Origin: Candidatus Latescibacterota bacterium
GTDB taxonomy: Bacteria > Latescibacterota > UBA2968 > UBA8231
NCBI GenBank assembly: GCA_965261395.1
Contig: OZ253462.1
Location: 2,528,001-2,592,000, forward strand
Direction: 5' to 3'
DNA length: 64,000 nt
In this document: in pieces, positions 31,972-40,033 of the stretch
Numbering within the stretch: the stretch's first letter is position 1
Layout: every line of letters starts with the position of its first letter
Made by a program: the position numbers and the translations under genes
Notes under the pieces: generated by a model
What the model was told of the DNA's origin: nothing
Database searches by the model: none
The model's input: only the letters and a program-made list of their open reading frames with translations

Positions 31972-33111
31972 TCAATACTGACGGTAGATTCGGCCACCCT
32001 TGACCACAACCAGCGGTTCCAATTGCTGGTCGCCGGTGCGTGTTTCCCCGCCTGAATCGGCCAATTGGAACTGACCTTGGCGCACATCCAGCACTACGGC
32101 GTCGCCCCAAGCACCTACCGCCAAGGTGCCGATCTCGTCCGGCATCCCAATGACTTGGGCCGGCACGGCGGTTACTTTGGCCAAGGCCGTGTCGAGGTCC
32201 ATGCCCAAGTGGAGGAATTTGGATACGACGTTGACCAAGTCATATACCGGTCCGTTGAGGTTGTACACATGCAGGTCTGAGGAAATGGTATGCGGCGCAA
32301 GGCCGGCGCTCAGAGCGGTCTCGGCCACCTCCCAAGAGAAAGAGCCAGAGCCGTGCCCCACATCAAAGAGCACGCCTCGCTCCACGGCCTCGAGTACCGC
32401 AGGGCGCACTTGGCCGGTCTCGTCGAGGATGCCGCACTTCATGCCGTGGAAACAATGCGTGAGGATGTCGCCCTGTTTCATCACGGCCAGCACGTCATCG
32501 AGGCTGTCGCACCAGGCGTCTTGGGGGTGGACCATAATGGGCAGACCAGCGGCATCCGCAGCCTCGCGGGCCCGGTGCAAGGGCAGCATCCCCGAGCGCT
32601 CACTGACTATGCTGTTGCGGGTGAGCCGCACCTTGACCCCCAAGATGAGATCGCGGTGTTGTTCGATCATGCGGCAGGCTTTGCCCACATCTGCGTACTC
32701 GGGGATCTCGAACTCGCCGATTTCGTGCGTCAACATGCCCTGCGAGGAGATGTTGAGCTGGGCCAAGATGCGGGTGTCACTGACGTCGATAATGAACTTG
32801 CGGAAGCCGGGAAAGGTATCAGCACCGGCCGAGCCAGCATCGACCGCGGTGGTGACGCCTCGGGCCAAGCAAGTGGGATCAGGCTCGACGCCAAAATGGC
32901 TGACCCCCCAGAACACGTGGACGTGCAGGTCGATGAGGCCGGGGGTCACCACGTAGCCCGCGACATCGATCGTTTGGCGTGCTTGGGCTGTGGGCAGGTC
33001 GGCCCCGACTGCGGCTACTTTGCCGTCGGCGAAGGCCACGTCCAGCACCGCGTGCAGTTGTTGGGCTGGATCAACTAGGGTGCCGCCTTTGAGAAGCAGG
33101 TCGTAGAGCAT
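31972..33111 (-). CDS. Amidohydrolase/deacetylase-family metallohydrolase (dihydroorotase-like)
   Basis: PGLIDLHVH, GVKVR, MVH, THCF, ISSDLH. Confidence 0.9.
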   Translation of the reverse strand: MLYDLLLKGGTLVDPAQQLHAVLDVAFADGKVAAVGADLPTAQARQTIDVAGYVVTPGLIDLHVHVFWGVSHFGVEPDPTCLARGVTTAVDAGSAGADTFPGFRKFIIDVSDTRILAQLNISSQGMLTHEIGEFEIPEYADVGKACRMIEQHRDLILGVKVRLTRNSIVSERSGMLPLHRAREAADAAGLPIMVHPQDAWCDSLDDVLAVMKQGDILTHCFHGMKCGILDETGQVRPAVLEAVERGVLFDVGHGSGSFSWEVAETALSAGLAPHTISSDLHVYNLNGPVYDLVNVVSKFLHLGMDLDTALAKVTAVPAQVIGMPDEIGTLAVGAWGDAVVLDVRQGQFQLADSGGETRTGDQQLEPLVVVKGGRIYRQY

Positions 33112-33192
33112 GGGATTCTCCGAAAAGGAGTGAGGTTTCTTTAAGACGCTGTGAGTTGCTTCAGTGCCAGGTGGAGCCTATTGGCACTCCGG

Positions 33193-34047
33193 TTATGGAG
33201 TAGCGGTCTCGAACAAGGCCAGCCAATCGTCCACGCTTTGGGCCACCGACTCGGGGTGAGCTTGGCTGCGGGCGATAAAGCCGGGGACGCCGTCGCGGCC
33301 GCTGGGTTGAGCCGGGTCGCTGTAGCGCAGGTCGAGGCTCCAGCGGATGTGGTCGGAGTGGTTGGGGATGGAGCGGTGGATGGTCTTGTGCTGGATGAGC
33401 AGCACGCCGCCGACTTTGACCGGGCAGCTAACTTGCTCGCCGGGGGGCAAGTACTGATCGGTGATGCCTTTGAAATTGGCCCCGGGTCCCAAGCCGTGCT
33501 CGTGGCCGATGAGCGGGGCGCGGTTGCTGCCGGCAATAACTTCCATGCAGCCGTTTTTAGGGGTGGCATCGACCAAGGGAATCCAAAAATTGACCATGAA
33601 GGTCTCTTCGGCGTCGGGCTGCAAATAGCCGAGGTCTTGATGCCAGGGCACCACAGTGGCGTCTTGGTTGGGCAATTTGGCGCGCAGGTTGAATTGCGGG
33701 TGCGCCAGTATTTCGGGACCGATCACGGATTCGACCATGTCGAGCAGCGCCGGTTGGGTCAGAATGGCGAACATGCCCTCGGTTTTGAGCTTGCCGTTGA
33801 CTTGACCCAACAGCGGGGAAGGGTCGGCCCACTGGGCGTGGATGTGGACCAAGCGCTTGGCAAAGGGTAGGTCCGCGTGCAGGTCGGACAGTTCGCCGGC
33901 AGCGTGGGCCTGCTCGGCGGCGGTATCGACAATGGCGTCGATTTCGGCGATGAGGAGGTCGAAGGCAGAGGGGTCGAGGACATCCTCTACTAGGAGGTAG
34001 CCTTGGGTGCGGTAGAAGTCGAGTTGGTCGGAGGTGAGGCCGCTCAT
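33193..34047 (-). CDS. Phytanoyl-CoA dioxygenase (PhyH) family 2OG-Fe(II) oxygenase
   Basis: FYRTQGYL, PWHQD, NGCMEVIAGS, IHRS..N.S...R. Confidence 0.9.
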   Translation of the reverse strand: MSGLTSDQLDFYRTQGYLLVEDVLDPSAFDLLIAEIDAIVDTAAEQAHAAGELSDLHADLPFAKRLVHIHAQWADPSPLLGQVNGKLKTEGMFAILTQPALLDMVESVIGPEILAHPQFNLRAKLPNQDATVVPWHQDLGYLQPDAEETFMVNFWIPLVDATPKNGCMEVIAGSNRAPLIGHEHGLGPGANFKGITDQYLPPGEQVSCPVKVGGVLLIQHKTIHRSIPNHSDHIRWSLDLRYSDPAQPSGRDGVPGFIARSQAHPESVAQSVDDWLALFETATP

Positions 34048-34052
34048 GGGAA

Positions 34053-34535
34053 TTATCCTTTTGTTGAGGGGTTAGTTGGGGTTTGGCTATTGCCTTCGCT
34101 CTGGTCATCAACCGGTGCGATAAGCATTCCAAGCCGGGCGGCAGCATCGACCTGTCGGCGGTCGAAGGACCCGAAGGTTATCAGCACTCCTAACGAAGAT
34201 TGCAGATACTCAGCCCCCGCAAGGTGAACACTGTCATAGGCGCGTACGCCGAGTTGTTCGCTCAGAGCACCGGCTCGTCGCAGCAGGGTCTGGGTGACCG
34301 CGACCCGGTGATATCGCTCCCAATCCTCCTCCAGCTCCTTCTTGCATCCCACCAACTCTGCGTCGGACAGGTCACCCAAACGTCGTTTGGCAGCCAAAGC
34401 AGATCGCGCCTCCACGTATGCGAGCCACTGGCAGGCAACTTCCTCGGCCACCTCCACCCAGCCACGTACCGTCTCGGAGTCGGCCTCCTCGACGTACAGT
34501 TTGACGAGAGCCGATGTGTCGAGAAAGAGGATCAC
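34053..34535 (-). CDS. vapC: VapC/PIN-domain toxin
   Basis: LFLDTSALVK...E...RAYDSVHLA...SFD. Confidence 0.9.
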   Translation of the reverse strand: MILFLDTSALVKLYVEEADSETVRGWVEVAEEVACQWLAYVEARSALAAKRRLGDLSDAELVGCKKELEEDWERYHRVAVTQTLLRRAGALSEQLGVRAYDSVHLAGAEYLQSSLGVLITFGSFDRRQVDAAARLGMLIAPVDDQSEGNSQTPTNPSTKG

Positions 34536-34798
34536 CGTCGCTCTTCCATCACGATGTCCGCAACGCTTTTCTGTCCGGGTTTGACGCGCACGGGGTGCGT
34601 CGCACCTCTCGGTTTTTCCCCCGTCCCGGCATTGATCCCCGGCAGGGTGGCCAGCCGCTCTTCCAACGGGAGAGACGGTAGCGGCACGAGGCGGGCGATG
34701 GGCTTCCCCCTCAACGTTACGACGACCGTCTCTCCCTGCTGGACTTGCCGAAGATAGCGCGATAACCTGCTCTTCAGGTCGCGTACGGATGCGTTCAT
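34532..34798 (-). CDS. Phd/YefM-family antitoxin
   Basis: SVRDLKSRLSRYLRQVQQGETVVVTLRGKPIARLVP; GTGA overlap with the toxin. Confidence 0.9.
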   Translation of the reverse strand: MNASVRDLKSRLSRYLRQVQQGETVVVTLRGKPIARLVPLPSLPLEERLATLPGINAGTGEKPRGATHPVRVKPGQKSVADIVMEERR

Positions 34799-34873: not shown

Positions 34874-34901
34874 TTGACGGAATCCGGCGTTCCTCTATCT
34901 T
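34874..34901 (+). promoter_or_regulatory. Sigma-70-type promoter of the aspS leader
   Basis: TTGACG-N16-TATCTT; the predicted start site (~34908) is right at the leader ATGs. Confidence 0.6.
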
Positions 34902-34903
34902 GG

Positions 34904-34978
34904 ATGGCTATGATGACTCGTCAAAACGACCGCATGCAAAATAATAATAACCCGCTGGTCCCATTGCGCGTGTTCTGA
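34904..34978 (+). CDS. Asn-rich attenuator leader peptide of aspS
   Basis: MAMMTRQNDRMQNNNNPLVPLRVF*; AAT AAT AAT AAC at 34940-34951. The true start may be ATG 34910 or 34913 (near-leaderless). Confidence 0.75.
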   Translation: MAMMTRQNDRMQNNNNPLVPLRVF

Positions 34979-35009
34979 CGACTGACTCCAACCCAATCCA
35001 AGAATTCAC

Positions 35010-35050
35010 AACCCGTCGCGAACACGCATCGCGGCGGGTTTTCTGTTTTT
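35010..35050 (+). terminator. Intrinsic terminator (attenuator) upstream of aspS
   Basis: AACCCGTCGCGA-acacgca-TCGCGGCGGGTT (12 bp, one GU) followed by TTCTGTTTTT, just before the AGGAGG RBS. Mutually exclusive with a 34968-34980 : 35014-35027 pairing. Confidence 0.85.
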
Positions 35051-35062
35051 AGGAGGCTAACC

Positions 35063-36823
35063 ATGCACCGCTATCGCACCCACACCTGTGGCGAACTCCG
35101 CAAGCGCCACGCCGGCCAGACCATTGGCCTGAGCGGCTGGATACACCGCAGAAGGGACCACGGGGGCGTACTGTTCCTAGATCTGCGCGACCACTACGGC
35201 ATCACCCAACTGGTGATCTCGCCGGAAAATGACGCTGCGACCACCGCGGCAAAGATCCCCCGCGAATCCGTAATTCGCGTCCTAGGCGACGTGCGCGAAC
35301 GATCGCCTGCGGCCATTAACAGCGCCATGAAAACCGGAGAGATTGAAATCGCCGTCCGCGAGATAGAAGTACTCTCGCCGGCGGAGCCGCTCCCCTTTTC
35401 CGTGGCCGAAGACCCCGAAGTGGGCGAGAGCACCCGCTTGTCCTATCGCTTCCTCGACCTGCGCCGGGCCGGGCTGCACCGCCGCATTCAGCTCCGCTCG
35501 GACGTGATCGCCAGCATCAGACGGCGCATGACGGGCATGGGTTTTGCCGAGTTCCAGACGCCCATTCTCACCAGCAGCTCGCCCGAGGGCGCACGCGATT
35601 ACCTCGTGCCGAGCCGACTCTATCCCGGCCACTTCTACGCACTGCCGCAGGCACCGCAGCAGTTCAAGCAGTTGCTGATGGTGTCCGGCTTTGATCGCTA
35701 CTTCCAGATCGCACCCTGCTTCCGCGACGAAGATGCCCGCGCCGACCGCTCCCCTGGCGAGTTCTATCAGCTCGACCTCGAGATGGCCTTTGTCGAGCAG
35801 GAGGATGTCTTTGCTGTGGTCGAGGAACTCTTTTCCGGTCTCTTTCGCGAGTTCACCGATTGGGAAGTGCCCGCGCCGCCGTTCCCGCGTCTTTCCCACG
35901 CCGACGCCATGTTGCGGTTCGGCACGGACAAACCAGACCTGCGCTTCGCACTCGAAATCCAGGACCTCTCCGAGATTTTCGCGGATTCCTCGTTCAGGCT
36001 GTTCAGGGATATCGTCGCAGCAGGAGGGGTCGTCCGCGCCCTGTGCGTTCCCGGACTGGAGGCGCAGCCGCGCTCGTTTTTCGACAGCCTCGAAACATTC
36101 GTCAAAGAAGCGGGCGGCAAGGGGCTGGCATATCTCATCAACGGAGCGCAGGCCACAGGCTCAATCGCCGCGGCCCTAGAACAGAGCGTGCGCAGTCGCA
36201 TTATCGAGGAATGCGCCGCCGCTCCGGGATCAGCCATTTTCTTTATCGCCGGACCGCCAGCCGAGGTAGCGACTCTAGCGGGACGGTTGCGCCTGCATCT
36301 GGCGGATCGGCTCGATTTGCGTAGGGAAGGTTGCTATGAATTCTGCTGGGTCGTCGATTTTCCCATGTACGAATGGGACGCGGAACACGCTTGTGTGGCC
36401 TTTTCACACAACCCGTTTTCCATGCCGCAGGGTGGCATGGCTGCGCTGGAGACGCAACCGCCGCTGGAGATCAAGGCGTATCAGTACGACATCGTCTGCA
36501 ACGGCCTCGAACTGTCGAGCGGTGCCATCCGCAATCACAGACCAGACATCATGTACAAGGCGTTCGAGATTGCCGGACATTCGCAACGGGAAGTCGATCG
36601 CAGGTTCGGGGGCATGATCCGCGCCTTGCGCTACGGCGCTCCGCCCCACGGCGGCATCGCCCCCGGCATCGACCGCATCGTCATGCTGCTGGCGGACGAA
36701 CCGAACATACGGGAGGTCATCGCCTTCCCGATGAACCAGAATGCGCAGGATCCGCTCATGGGCGCTCCGGGAGAAGTGTCGCCTGAGCAGTTGCGGGAGT
36801 TGCACATAGCGGTTCGGGAGTGA
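35063..36823 (+). CDS. aspS: Aspartate--tRNA(Asp/Asn) ligase, probably non-discriminating
   Basis: [16 protein letters not shown] (His at the ND-signature position), [33 protein letters not shown]. Confidence 0.97.
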
Positions 36824-36871
36824 TATTATTCTTGAAATGGACCTCAGCGACCCAAGAAAGTGAGCCCTGCC

Positions 36872-37810
36872 ATGAAAACACAACGCTACCAACTCCGCAT
36901 CAGCGGTTTAAGAGAAGACAAAGGTCAAATCAAGATAGCGACTCTCCGGCGTGTTATGGACGCCCTTCTCGTGATAGCAGAGAGGACCACCCGCTTGCTC
37001 GCTACGGGCGCAGGTAGTGGGAGGGGAGCGAGGCCTCAGTGGCTGGACGCCACCATTGACTTCACGATAACTAGATTGAAATCCGGATCTACGATTTTTG
37101 ACATAGAGGCTCCCCAGCTTAGTGAGACTGCCTACGCACAATTTGTCCAAGAAGATTTATGGAGCAAGCAGCCCAGCCTAGACGAAACGGCGCTCGATCT
37201 GGTAGCTCAATCGATCAAAGAGACCCAGACCGACAATCCAATTGGAGACTATTTCGACAGTTCGGTTCTCGAAGCGATTCTCAAGTTCAGGCAAGCGGCT
37301 GGCGTTGCTGGTGTGCGCTATGAAATGATCCCTCAAGACACGGCGCATGGGCAATTCAAGCTGGACGACATTACTTGCACATACGCCAAAGAGCGATTGA
37401 ATGACATCCCGACTCCAAGGTCTTTTATCGTAAGTGGAAGGCTCGACGAGATCAAACATGGTAATGGTCGCTTTCGCCTTCTGGTGAGCGAGAAGTCAGC
37501 ACTCTTTGGACGGCTGGACGCGTCATTGGGCGTAGAGGCTTTGCGTCCTCTATGGGGTAAGCAGACCACCATTGAGGGAATGGTGCATTTCAAGGCCAAT
37601 GGGCAGCCGCGATTGATCGAGGCTCGCCGGATTAGTGCTCGACTGGAAAGTGATAGCATTTTCGAAGAAATGCCGTCAGTAGAAGTCCAAAGACCGCGTG
37701 TCCTTTTTTCGGTACAACGCAAACAAGTCAAAGGGTTCGACCCTATTGAGCTTGCGGGCGCATGGCCTGGCGATGAACCCATCGAGGATCTCCTAGCCCA
37801 ACTTGATTGA
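36872..37810 (+). CDS. Hypothetical protein, possibly antitoxin-like partner of the downstream PIN remnant
   Basis: Clean ~312-aa ORF; C-terminus ELAGAWPGDEPIEDLLAQLD resembles antitoxin tails; lower GC than flanks. Confidence 0.7.
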   Translation: MKTQRYQLRISGLREDKGQIKIATLRRVMDALLVIAERTTRLLATGAGSGRGARPQWLDATIDFTITRLKSGSTIFDIEAPQLSETAYAQFVQEDLWSKQPSLDETALDLVAQSIKETQTDNPIGDYFDSSVLEAILKFRQAAGVAGVRYEMIPQDTAHGQFKLDDITCTYAKERLNDIPTPRSFIVSGRLDEIKHGNGRFRLLVSEKSALFGRLDASLGVEALRPLWGKQTTIEGMVHFKANGQPRLIEARRISARLESDSIFEEMPSVEVQRPRVLFSVQRKQVKGFDPIELAGAWPGDEPIEDLLAQLD

Positions 37811-38047: not shown

Positions 38048-40033
38048 ATGCCTGACCACAGCTACTTCGCTAACCTGATCTGGCAGATCGCCGACCTGCT
38101 GCGCGGTCCCTACCGCCCGCCGCAGTACGAGCGCGTCATGCTGCCTATGACCGTGCTGCGGAGGTTCGACTGCGTGCTTGCTCCGAGCAAGCCCGAAGTC
38201 TTGGCCGAGTACAGCCGCTGGGGCGGGAGACTCGACGGCGAAGCGCTCGACGTTAGGCTGAACAGGGCTGCCGGTCAGCGCTTTCACAACCACTCGCCGC
38301 TCGATTTCGAGAAGCTCAAGGGCGATCCAGATAACATCGCCCGGCACCTCGTCAGTTACATCCAAGGCTTTTCGGCCAACGTGCGCCGCATCTTCGAGTA
38401 CTTCGAGTTTGAGACTGAGATCGAGAAGATGCAGGAGTCGAATATCCTCTACCTCGTCGTCTCAAAGTTCTGCGATGTAGATCTACACCCCGATAGAGTT
38501 CCGAACGAGCAAATGGGTCTTCTCTTCGAGAACCTCATCCGCCGCTTCAACGAGTTGGCGAACGAGACTGCAGGCGACCACTTCACGCCGCGCGAGGTCA
38601 TCCGGCTAATGGTGAGCATCCTCTTCATTCACGACGACGAACTGCTCGCCACGCCCGGCACCGTGCGTAAGCTCCTCGACCCCGCTTGTGGCACCGGCGG
38701 CATGTTGGCCGAGGCGCAAAATTACCTGCGAGATCTCCACGCCGCTGCCCGGCTCTACGTCTATGGGCAGGACTATAACAACCGCGCCTTTGCCACCGCA
38801 GCCTCCGACATGTTGATGAAGCAGGTTGATCACAACGGCGGCGGAGACAGCATCCGCTTCGGAGACAGCCTTACAGGGGATCAATTCGAGGGTGAGACCT
38901 TCGACTACTTCCTCACCAATCCGCCCTTCGGCGTGGACTGGAAGAGGCAGAAGAATGAGATCCAGAGGGAACACGACAAGCTCGGATTCGAGGGCCGCTT
39001 CGGCGCTGGACTCCCGCGAGTGAATGACGGCTCGCTGCTTTTCTTACAGCATATGACCCACAAGTTTGAGCCAGTACGCCCAGACGAGCACAAGCACGGC
39101 TCGCGCTTGGCCATCGTATTCAGTGGCTCGCCGCTCTTTACCGGCGGTGCTGGCTCCGGCGAGAGCGACATTCGCAAGTGGATCATCGAAAACGATTGGC
39201 TTGAAGCCATCATCGCCTTGCCGGAACAGATGTTCTACAACACCGGCATCGGCACCTACGTATGGATCGTCACCAACCGCAAAGAGAAGCGGCGGCAGGG
39301 GAAAATCCAGCTTCTTGATGCCCGCGACTTGTGGACCGCGGGCGGGAGTGAAGACAACAAGCGCAGCCTTGGCGATAAGCGCCGCCACATCGCCGCAGAG
39401 CAGATTGAGGAGATCGTGCAGCTATATGGCCGCTTTGAGGACGGCGAGCGCTCCAAGCTCTTCGACAACGCTGACTTCGGCTACACACGCGTGACCGTGG
39501 AGCAACCTCTGCGCTTGCGCTACCAGATGACCATAGAAGACAAGTCCCGCTTTCTCGATGCCTGCCCGTACCTGCTCGACGACGTGCAGGCCATCGACAA
39601 GGCGTTGGGACGCGAGCCGAAGTACGACTGGAATGCGACATGGGAGAGCATTGCCGATCTCCTGCATGAGCACCAATCGCGCTGGAAGAAGGTAGAACAG
39701 AGGCTCTTCCGAGATGTCTTCACCGAGAAGGATCCGCAAGCCGAGCGGGTCAGGAAAGATGGCCGGGAGAAAGGCTACGAGCCTGACACCGCGCTGCGCG
39801 ACTTCGAGAACGTGCCGCTTAAAGACAACATTGACGCCTACTTCGAGCGCGAGGTAGCACCCCACCTTCCCGACGCTTGGATGGACCGCGACAAGGACAA
39901 GGTCGGTTACGAGATCAACTTCAACCGCCATTTCTATAAGTACACGCCGCCGCGCCCGCTGGAAGAGATTGACGCAGATCTGAAGAAGGCGGAGAAAACG
40001 ATCTTGCGGCTGTTGAAGGAGGTGACGGAGTGA
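38048..40033 (+). CDS. hsdM: Type I R-M methyltransferase subunit (N6-adenine)
   Basis: IWQIADLLRG, GDHFTPREVI, LDPACGTGG, NPPF. Confidence 0.96.
   Translation: MPDHSYFANLIWQIADLLRGPYRPPQYERVMLPMTVLRRFDCVLAPSKPEVLAEYSRWGGRLDGEALDVRLNRAAGQRFHNHSPLDFEKLKGDPDNIARHLVSYIQGFSANVRRIFEYFEFETEIEKMQESNILYLVVSKFCDVDLHPDRVPNEQMGLLFENLIRRFNELANETAGDHFTPREVIRLMVSILFIHDDELLATPGTVRKLLDPACGTGGMLAEAQNYLRDLHAAARLYVYGQDYNNRAFATAASDMLMKQVDHNGGGDSIRFGDSLTGDQFEGETFDYFLTNPPFGVDWKRQKNEIQREHDKLGFEGRFGAGLPRVNDGSLLFLQHMTHKFEPVRPDEHKHGSRLAIVFSGSPLFTGGAGSGESDIRKWIIENDWLEAIIALPEQMFYNTGIGTYVWIVTNRKEKRRQGKIQLLDARDLWTAGGSEDNKRSLGDKRRHIAAEQIEEIVQLYGRFEDGERSKLFDNADFGYTRVTVEQPLRLRYQMTIEDKSRFLDACPYLLDDVQAIDKALGREPKYDWNATWESIADLLHEHQSRWKKVEQRLFRDVFTEKDPQAERVRKDGREKGYEPDTALRDFENVPLKDNIDAYFEREVAPHLPDAWMDRDKDKVGYEINFNRHFYKYTPPRPLEEIDADLKKAEKTILRLLKEVTE

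Follow-up and report, generated by a model that had tools for sequence, protein, structure and literature searches.

Why would a bacterium that encodes a housekeeping aspartyl-tRNA synthetase (AspRS) as well as an asparaginyl-tRNA synthetase (AsnRS) keep a second AspRS gene, and why does this gene stand behind a short open reading frame (ORF) crowded with asparagine (Asn) codons and an intrinsic terminator? The question is raised by a 64,000-nt stretch of DNA (the window; contig OZ253462.1, positions 2,528,001 to 2,592,000 of the forward strand, assembly GCA_965261395.1) from a Candidatus Latescibacterota bacterium, in which the second gene, here termed aspS2, is preceded by a leader at window positions 34874-35062. 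According to the analysis presented here, this leader is likely to be a ribosome-mediated attenuator of transcription that senses how far tRNA-Asn, and less strongly tRNA-Asp, is charged, and would thereby gate an inducible second AspRS gene.

Anatomy of the aspS2 leader

The leader begins with a promoter-like, sigma-70-like site (-35 hexamer at 34874-34879, -10 hexamer at 34896-34901; 16-nt spacer, 9 of 12 matches) that lies, as all features of this section, on the forward strand. The leader ORF (34910-34978) comprises 22 codons and a TGA stop codon and contains five Asn codons and one aspartate (Asp) codon: a run of four Asn codons at 34940-34951, read from the sequence and proposed as the stalling site, and a further Asn codon (34925-34927) followed by the Asp codon (34928-34930). 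An additional in-frame ATG at 34904 is confined to the window sequence; the relatives begin at the ATG-ATG of 34910. The intrinsic terminator (35010-35050; -21.1 kcal/mol for the folded hairpin) consists of a stem at 35010-35040 with 12 pairs (eight of them G-C) and a 7-nt loop, and of a T-rich tract up to 35050; it is directly followed by the Shine-Dalgarno site of aspS2 (35051-35056, read from the sequence). The gene itself (35063-36823, start codon ATG at 35063) encodes an accessory bacterial-type AspRS of 586 aa. Promoter, leader ORF with four Asn codons and 12-bp terminator with U-tract were all found where the initial annotation, made from the sequence without database searches, had placed them.

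The complementarity which this annotation had pointed out between 34968-34980 and 35014-35027 proved to be exact: positions 34968-34980 pair with 35014-35018 and 35020-35027 in an antiterminator of 13 pairs with one bulged base. Calculated as duplex, the antiterminator amounts to -21.2 kcal/mol (-17.5 kcal/mol as hairpin) in comparison to a mean of -12.8 kcal/mol (standard deviation 2.5) for 1000 dinucleotide shuffles of the 95 nt upstream, only two of which reached its energy. Its 3' strand (segment 3, 35014-35027) overlaps with the terminator, taking in the inner 5' arm and the greater part of the loop. Folding of alternative structures recovered the antiterminator (helix 2:3) and the terminator (helix 3:4) and added a predicted anti-antiterminator that had been missed before (helix 1:2, -14.4 kcal/mol), in which segment 1 (34918-34934, from minimum-free-energy folds) pairs with segment 2 (34965-34981). 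Segment 2, the partner of either segment 1 or segment 3, contains the leader stop codon (34976-34978). By these folds, all three helices of a classical attenuator (1:2, 2:3 and 3:4) can form in the leader. The Asn run occupies the loop that separates segments 1 and 2; from the end of its last codon it is 13 nt to segment 2 and 16 nt to the antiterminator strand. Together with the position of the stop codon inside segment 2, this spacing fits the attenuation geometry that had been suggested.

The -10 hexamer and the leader ATG are separated by only 8 nt, and no Shine-Dalgarno site is present there. The same spacing from the end of the -10 hexamer to the ATG was seen in three genera, and the promoter position relative to the leader ATG is kept in other genera (compared over the 60 nt upstream of each covariance model match, see below). 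Judged from this promoter-ATG spacing, the mRNA of the leader may be leaderless or nearly so.

Chance expectation for the asparagine codons

Asn accounts for 2.7% of the codons in long ORFs of the genome, and five Asn codons in a 24-codon frame (counted from the ATG at 34904) have a probability of approximately 4e-4. The 6.55-Mb genome holds 13 runs of at least four AAY codons (both strands, all frames): nine are located in long open frames and three in no meaningful ORF; the run in the window is the sole one whose ORF is short, starts with ATG and precedes a terminator. The ratio of Asn to Asp codons is 5:1 in the window leader, and Asn codons outnumber Asp codons in most of the leaders listed in the comparison with relatives. 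A BLAST search of the own genome for other copies of the leader returned the window copy only; analogous leaders were not seen in this genome before glnS, asnS, the housekeeping aspS, gatA or gatB, and the region upstream of the housekeeping AspRS gene showed neither leader ORF nor terminator.

Conservation of the leader in relatives

To the observed sequence anatomy and alternative pairings, the comparison with relatives adds conservation as a further observation. The comparison set comprised 76 genomes of the order, which is a single family with 18 genera; 31 of them belong to the own genus. aspS2 was detected in 33 of the 76 genomes, including 21 of the 31 in the own genus, and in eight genera in all by that search. 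Conservation upstream of aspS2, named in the initial annotation as a point to be checked, is indeed present: an Asn-rich frame and a terminator precede all 32 aspS2 genes with upstream DNA on the contig (nine genera; the 33rd aspS2 sits at a contig end and is not included in this count). A covariance model built from unit 1, the unit present in the window, found exactly one copy per genome in 21 of the 31 genus and 30 of the 76 order genomes. All but one of the 30 order-level matches adjoin aspS2, one of these 29 being a remnant beside a 5'-truncated aspS2; the remaining match is weak and lies upstream of asd.

Of the 26 unit-1 sequences that were aligned, 25 have an intact ORF (lengths of 63, 66, 69, 87 and 90 nt); the ORF of the remaining one begins at a different column and stays open for 81 nt. 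The stop codon lies within segment 2 in all 26. Indels in multiples of three occur only inside the ORF, and the noncoding spacer after the stop codon varies by -8, -5, -2, -1 and +1 nt. Segment 2 is nearly invariant across genera, and conservation is much stronger in segments 2-4 than in the peptide. The Asn run comprises two to four codons within the genus, and scattered Asn codons (four to eight per leader) are found in other genera, where an 18- to 21-nt insertion brings additional ones; the leaders of g22, g15, g13, g9 and g6 differ by in-frame insertions and keep four to eight Asn codons. The glutamine (Gln) codons of the leader are not conserved.

The aspS2 orthologues of g9, g6, g19 and g21 share 64-76% protein identity; although their leaders differ in sequence, they still possess Asn-rich frames, each with a terminator and an antiterminator of its own. 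Four of the orthologues (64-69% identity; g19 and g21) have no model match at aspS2; each is nevertheless preceded by an Asn-rich frame (3-8 Asn in 24-54 codons) and a terminator, with pairing of the frame end with the terminator 5' arm, in leaders that by eye are unlike that of the window, and one of these four loci again has two tandem units. Over all leaders listed, 3-8 Asn codons occur in 22-54 codons. The recurrence of Asn codons in unrelated leaders supports the view that these codons, rather than the leader sequence, would be under selection. Outside the family, none of 76 loci (L041-L116) was flagged by a filter for short ORFs with at least three Asn, or at least four Asn/Asp, in a row, a filter that also missed the family's own L039.

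Decayed copies were encountered at two sites: L157 (G091:C1:3148776-3148919 and downstream) shows a shortened Asn-rich leader and a terminator before an aspS2 that is missing approximately the first 190 codons, and G021:C1:4024548-4025211 holds aspS2 fragments only, with two in-frame TGA codons.

Base pairing and covariation

Of the helix 2:3 cells in the 26 sequences, 96.4% are paired, and two independent compensatory pairs are present; the covariation score was reached by two of 500 shuffles. Both compensated positions lie in the terminator loop; the loop is conserved because it pairs in helix 2:3. The terminator is paired in 99.7% of cells in the 26 sequences with no compensatory change, and helix 1:2 is paired in 90% of cells in the 18 genus-level sequences. 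Covariation in both helices, which the initial annotation had named as a check, was weak for the antiterminator and not seen for the terminator, and the comparison within the genus was uninformative.

A second tandem unit in most relatives

Most relatives carry a second unit between unit 1 and aspS2; in the window and in four other genus members, unit 1 is the only one and is joined to the aspS2 ribosome-binding site. Unit 2 comprises a Shine-Dalgarno site and an ORF of 29-30 codons, which is unrelated in sequence to unit 1 and contains a block of mixed Asn and Asp codons; it also has an antiterminator of -31.0 kcal/mol (reached by none of 200 shuffles) and a terminator of -24.8 kcal/mol. Asp codons make up half of the block in leader 2 of the relatives; changes inside the block are mostly Asn-Asp swaps or synonymous, and one distant copy also has serine codons. 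The suggestion of the initial annotation that additional Asp and Gln codons may broaden the sensing finds support for Asp, which recurs mixed with Asn in the second leader, and none for the non-conserved Gln. In a metatranscriptome contig (X18, record 10), terminator 1 (3' half) is joined through 178 extra letters to 866 nt of the aspS2 of a relative with approximately 92% identity; the extra letters have the length of the second unit in relatives. The library may hold DNA, and the contig is not proof of a single transcript.

aspS2 and the asparagine machinery of the genome

The aspS2 protein matches NCBIfam NF001750 (804 bits) and the Pfam tRNA-synt_2, GAD and OB anticodon domains. The housekeeping AspRS of the same genome, likewise bacterial-type (G000:C1:4086419-4088164, minus strand), is 44% identical to it and was present in all 41 genomes of the first draw of relatives. 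In addition, the genome encodes AsnRS over the curated cut-off, glutaminyl-tRNA synthetase (GlnRS), GatA, GatB and GatC, so that gatCAB, asnS and a second aspS, the genes proposed for checking in the initial annotation, are all present. AsnA was not found, nor was AsnB over the cut-off, with only short glutamine-amidotransferase and PP-loop matches in other proteins. tRNA-Asn (U1-A72) and tRNA-Asp (G1-C72) are each encoded by a single gene. The supply of Asn-tRNA does not depend on aspS2 alone because the genome also has the housekeeping AspRS and AsnRS, and the contrary claim of the initial annotation has to be given up.

A histidine residue (His) and loop residues of the anticodon domain probably decide the tRNA specificity of AspRS; a literature search for a paper on the His/Gly determinants of this specificity returned nothing. 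At this position, His is found in the PDB chains named Asp/Asn ligase (4wj3, 4rmf), and the Asp-only enzyme of Thermus (6hhv, 1efw) has a leucine residue together with a nearby anticodon-domain loop that is two residues shorter. aspS2 has the His and the loop length of the Asp/Asn ligase chains. The His follows the Arg-Arg-Arg-Asp motif in aspS2 and in the housekeeping AspRS alike: the residue read in the initial annotation as the mark of a non-discriminating AspRS agrees with the Asp/Asn ligases and is not distinctive of aspS2. The closest AspRS sequences outside the family (57-63% identity) originate largely from Alphaproteobacteria; these enzymes must serve tRNA-Asn because asnS was found over the cut-off in none of the five alphaproteobacterial genomes examined. 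On balance, the residues and affiliations favor an aspS2 enzyme that also makes Asp-tRNA(Asn), i.e. is non-discriminating, and the housekeeping AspRS, bearing the same marks, may share this property.

In a FastTree phylogeny of AspRS (44 rows), 11 of the 12 aspS2 rows formed one well-supported clade apart from the housekeeping clade; L039 (the 12th aspS2 row), L018, L043 and L046 represented the wrong ORF, and their placements were disregarded. A g13 copy of aspS2 is nested in the genus clade, which suggests lateral spread within the family; a donor of aspS2 could not be named from the 44 rows. The housekeeping clade stands on a long branch (stem length 1.13) relative to aspS2 and the AspRS of other phyla.

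AsnB-like genes (TIGR01536, E up to 1e-30) are present in eight of the 33 genomes with aspS2 versus 31 of the 43 without it; within the genus the proportions are 1/21 versus 4/10, and in g22 0/3 versus 4/7. This complementarity is a tendency among related genomes and not a rule; it suggests that aspS2 tends to replace asparagine synthetase. Some tRNA-dependent asparagine synthesis probably runs through the housekeeping AspRS, and the most fitting role for aspS2 is that of a booster that can be induced.

Proposed mechanism

The steps that we infer from the sequence are the transcription start, translation of the leader, stalling of the ribosome and its coupling with RNA polymerase, as well as the choice of tRNAs by aspS2. 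Transcription would start a few bases before the leader ATG. With plentiful Asn-tRNA, the ribosome would reach the TGA inside segment 2 and cover this segment, the 3:4 terminator would form, and transcription would stop before aspS2. If the leader is not translated or the ribosome has gone, segments 1 and 2 would pair and the terminator would again form. When Asn-tRNA(Asn) is scarce, the ribosome would stall at 34940-34951 and occlude segment 1: assuming a ribosome footprint of the usual size, a ribosome with a codon of the Asn run in its A site would cover approximately 34925-34963, block helix 1:2 and leave segment 2 (from 34965) free. The free segment 2 would then find its partner in segment 3 before transcription has reached segment 4, with the result that no terminator forms and aspS2 is transcribed. 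The aspS2 enzyme would aspartylate tRNA-Asn and GatCAB would convert the product to Asn-tRNA(Asn); the loop would thus restore Asn-tRNA and yield asparagine, although neither AsnA nor AsnB was detected in the genome.

Weighing of the evidence and alternative explanations

A number of observations speak against the attenuator or against its connection with asparagine supply. Leader 1 has no Shine-Dalgarno site, so its translation hangs on an unverified leaderless start. The RNA data consist of assembled contigs only, with nothing over 34929-34975 in all four public RNA runs, and are not informative either way. Covariation is weak and, within the genus, the helices hardly vary and reveal nothing of note; across the 26 sequences, 12 of the 338 cells of helix 2:3 are unpaired. 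Alignments read by eye display single mismatches in L006 and L010 and the loss of the inner part of helix 1:2 in two g22 sequences; in folds, helix 2:3 is two pairs shorter in L152, and L159, the most distant model match, does not have the same 2:3 pairing. The genus member L015 has only two adjacent Asn codons. Concerning the enzyme, both AspRS copies carry marks resembling those of non-discriminating enzymes, from which no special role of aspS2 in tRNA-Asn charging follows; gatB is core to the family (73 of 76 genomes), eight of the 33 aspS2-bearing genomes also have AsnB-like genes, and six of the ten genus genomes lacking aspS2 have none.

The leader could respond to an inhibition of aspartyl-tRNA synthesis in general (by a natural AspRS inhibitor or by shortage of Asp), with aspS2 as a back-up or inhibitor-resistant AspRS and not as a means of asparagine supply. 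We regard this as unlikely, although it would account for the Asp codon beside Asn codons in leader 1 and for the Asp half of the leader-2 block in relatives; if the housekeeping AspRS also charges tRNA-Asn, its inhibition would empty both tRNAs. The accessory and patchy occurrence of aspS2 (33 of 76 genomes), its variable neighbourhoods (the window has a toxin-antitoxin pair as well as a type I restriction-modification gene) and its apparent lateral spread within the family, seen in the g13 copy inside the genus clade, would likewise suit a resistance gene, and an auxiliary gene for an antibiotic-resistant tryptophanyl-tRNA synthetase (TrpRS) with ribosome-mediated attenuation provides a precedent, as far as a reference in PMC4787780 indicates. 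Yet Asn codons exceed Asp codons in most leaders listed (in the window, leader 1 has five against one), no genes for biosynthesis or related to an inhibitor were seen next to aspS2, and a resistance role does not predict the tendency of aspS2 to occur where AsnB-like genes are absent.

Two other explanations dispense with the sensing ribosome. The short ORF might be untranslated and its Asn codons incidental, the leader being a structured RNA bound by a protein (e.g. AspRS in autoregulation), a tRNA or a small molecule, in line with the missing Shine-Dalgarno site of leader 1 and with segments 2-4 being far more conserved than the peptide. The absence of any Rfam family including the T-box even at E values up to 10, the restriction of multiple-of-three indels to the ORF, the invariable position of the stop codon inside segment 2, the proper Shine-Dalgarno site of leader 2 and the return of Asn enrichment in leaders of unrelated sequence make this very improbable. 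Scarcely credible to us is also a constitutive partial terminator with a chance ORF, conserved merely by recent common descent of a mobile aspS2 cassette: most aspS2 copies do share at least 90% protein identity and the helices hardly vary in the genus, but the orthologues of 64-76% identity in g9, g6, g19 and g21 preserve, in differing sequences, Asn-rich frames that have terminators and antiterminators of their own, and the antiterminator exceeds its shuffles. The attenuator that reads tRNA-Asn charging is accordingly retained as the likely explanation of the aspS2 leader.

Comparison with known systems

Leader-peptide attenuation itself is known; the specificity for Asn/Asp that is proposed here would be new. 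Classical attenuators control trp, his, leu, thr, ilv and pheA (Rfam families Trp_leader, His_leader, Leu_leader and Thr_leader), and those described sense tryptophan (Trp), His, leucine, threonine, isoleucine/valine or phenylalanine (Phe) codons and, more recently, cysteine (Cys) or proline codons. The aspS2 leader resembles them in its short codon-enriched ORF, the overlapping helices 2:3 and 3:4 with a predicted 1:2, the intrinsic terminator just before the gene and a stop codon at which a ribosome completing the leader would block the antiterminator; it differs in its Asn (with Asp) codons, in a tRNA synthetase gene instead of a biosynthetic operon as target, in the apparent lack of a Shine-Dalgarno site in leader 1, in the frequent tandem arrangement of units and in having no Rfam leader match. 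Ribosome-mediated attenuation of a synthetase gene is known from the Escherichia coli pheST attenuator with its pheM leader, which acts at Phe codons, and Vecchione and Sello in 2010 reportedly placed the auxiliary trpRS1 gene of Streptomyces under the same type of control. Both share with aspS2 the attenuation of a synthetase gene at codons of the amino acid concerned, and trpRS1 is also an auxiliary second copy; in contrast to pheST (Phe) and trpRS1 (Trp), the tRNA-Asn sensed here would be the proposed second substrate of the enzyme and not the name-giving one.

In agreement with the initial annotation, which could recall no characterised poly-Asn attenuator on aspS, neither the literature nor the comparison with Rfam yielded one. 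A full-text literature search found no paper on an Asn-codon attenuator or an aspS leader peptide; the sole mention of an aspS leader, a predicted tRNA synthetase leader in Shewanella, discusses no Asn codons in the passage concerned. Neither a T-box nor any other leader family was obtained in an Rfam scan of the leader with E values up to 10. Four weak Rfam matches were far below the gathering scores, two of them (a small RNA model and a CRISPR repeat model) covered only the terminator hairpin, and they were dismissed as chance matches.

The closest regulatory logic is that of Clostridium acetobutylicum, in which, according to passages of PMC4206432, an Asn-responsive T-box controls an aspS-gatCAB operon in an organism that also has AsnRS and extra AspRS copies. 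As far as these passages go, uncharged tRNA-Asn there induces the enzymes of the indirect Asn-tRNA pathway, as is proposed here, but the sensor is a tRNA-binding riboswitch and not a translating ribosome, and the aspS2 leader has no T-box match. The same source, in the parts concerned, calls an additional AspRS rare and lists Thermus, Deinococcus and Bdellovibrio as having AsnRS, GlnRS and GatCAB but no Asn synthetase, with asparagine made on tRNA-Asn; Thermus and Deinococcus have a second AspRS and Bdellovibrio a single non-discriminating one (PMC4206432). The gene set of the window genome matches the set given there; the extra AspRS of Thermus and Deinococcus is, however, archaeal-type, and aspS2 is bacterial-type with a GAD domain, and the passages of PMC4206432 on these three genera mention no attenuator for their AspRS genes. 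A parallel to the suspected leaderless start is offered by the leaderless polycysteine short ORFs of mycobacteria, described in part of bioRxiv 10.1101/834739 as cysteine-responsive attenuators: these, too, are regulatory ORFs at the very 5' end of the mRNA with no Shine-Dalgarno site and with enrichment of one amino acid, but amino acid, phylum and target genes are different, and the leaderless start of the aspS2 leader is deduced from spacing.

Genomic neighbourhood of aspS2 and related leaders

Divergent from the leader and with a promoter-like site at 34856-34828, genes for a PIN-domain toxin and an antitoxin of the Phd/YefM type lie on the minus strand of the window (34053-34798); such a pair flanks aspS2 in only four of the 19 loci compared. 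Upstream of it follow a PhyH-family dioxygenase gene (33193-34047) and a 379-aa ORF (31972-33111), together at 31972-34047 on the minus strand, for which no link to aspS2 was seen. On the plus strand, an ORF for 316 aa (36860-37810) begins 37 nt after aspS2, is conserved downstream in nine of the 19 loci and is possibly co-transcribed with aspS2; it matched no Pfam, NCBIfam or PADLOC family. Further downstream (38048-40033, plus strand) lies a type I restriction-modification methylase gene with HsdM N-terminal and N-6 DNA methylase domains. The toxin-antitoxin pair and the methylase suggest a variable, island-like neighbourhood; no biosynthetic or inhibitor-related genes were seen beside aspS2.

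Leaders that may read other amino acids were noticed at a few sites. At L160:1458-1553 (G077, contig C68), a weak model match upstream of asd comprises a 31-codon ORF with five lysine (Lys) codons, a strong terminator and then the asd Shine-Dalgarno site; asd and lysS are located between this leader and aspS2 on the same contig, and the ORF is possibly a Lys-sensing leader of an asd-lysS unit. In two g19 genomes (L163:1611-3561 and L164:1225-2872), the lysS frame (NCBIfam lysine-tRNA ligase, 558 bits) runs approximately 45 codons past the match to lysyl-tRNA synthetase, and this 3' tail, not a separate ORF, forms the Asn-rich stretch before the aspS2 terminator; ribosomes finishing lysS would here act as the sensor for aspS2. 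Upstream of glnS in G016 (L150:1461-1532), another weak model match contains a 23-codon ORF with four Gln codons, followed by a terminator.

Implications

Regulation of the indirect aminoacylation pathways needs to be better understood, as stated in a passage of a 2008 review (PMC2330236). If the attenuator reading is true, the aspS2 leader extends the attenuation mechanism to an amide amino acid whose synthesis in many bacteria takes place only on its tRNA, and directly links the charging of tRNA-Asn to the AspRS plus GatCAB pathway. It suggests why the rare second AspRS is kept: as an inducible asparagine route in genomes with neither AsnA nor AsnB. A more far-reaching view, which we put forward only tentatively and hold to be rather less probable than its opposite, takes the aspS2 cassette as a self-regulated, laterally mobile "asparagine prototrophy module", in which a non-discriminating AspRS induced by stalling at Asn/Asp codons would replace asparagine synthetase together with the core GatCAB, and as one member of a wider habit of the family to place synthetase genes under amino-acid-specific leader peptides, which would there fill the role that T-boxes have in Firmicutes; pointers to such a habit are the leader with Lys codons ahead of asd-lysS, the extended lysS frame ahead of aspS2 in g19 and the leader with Gln codons ahead of glnS. 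Units in tandem (Asn and Asn/Asp) and a start that is probably leaderless offer natural variants for studies of attenuator thresholds, and the regulatory biology of an uncultured lineage is here recovered from genomes alone.

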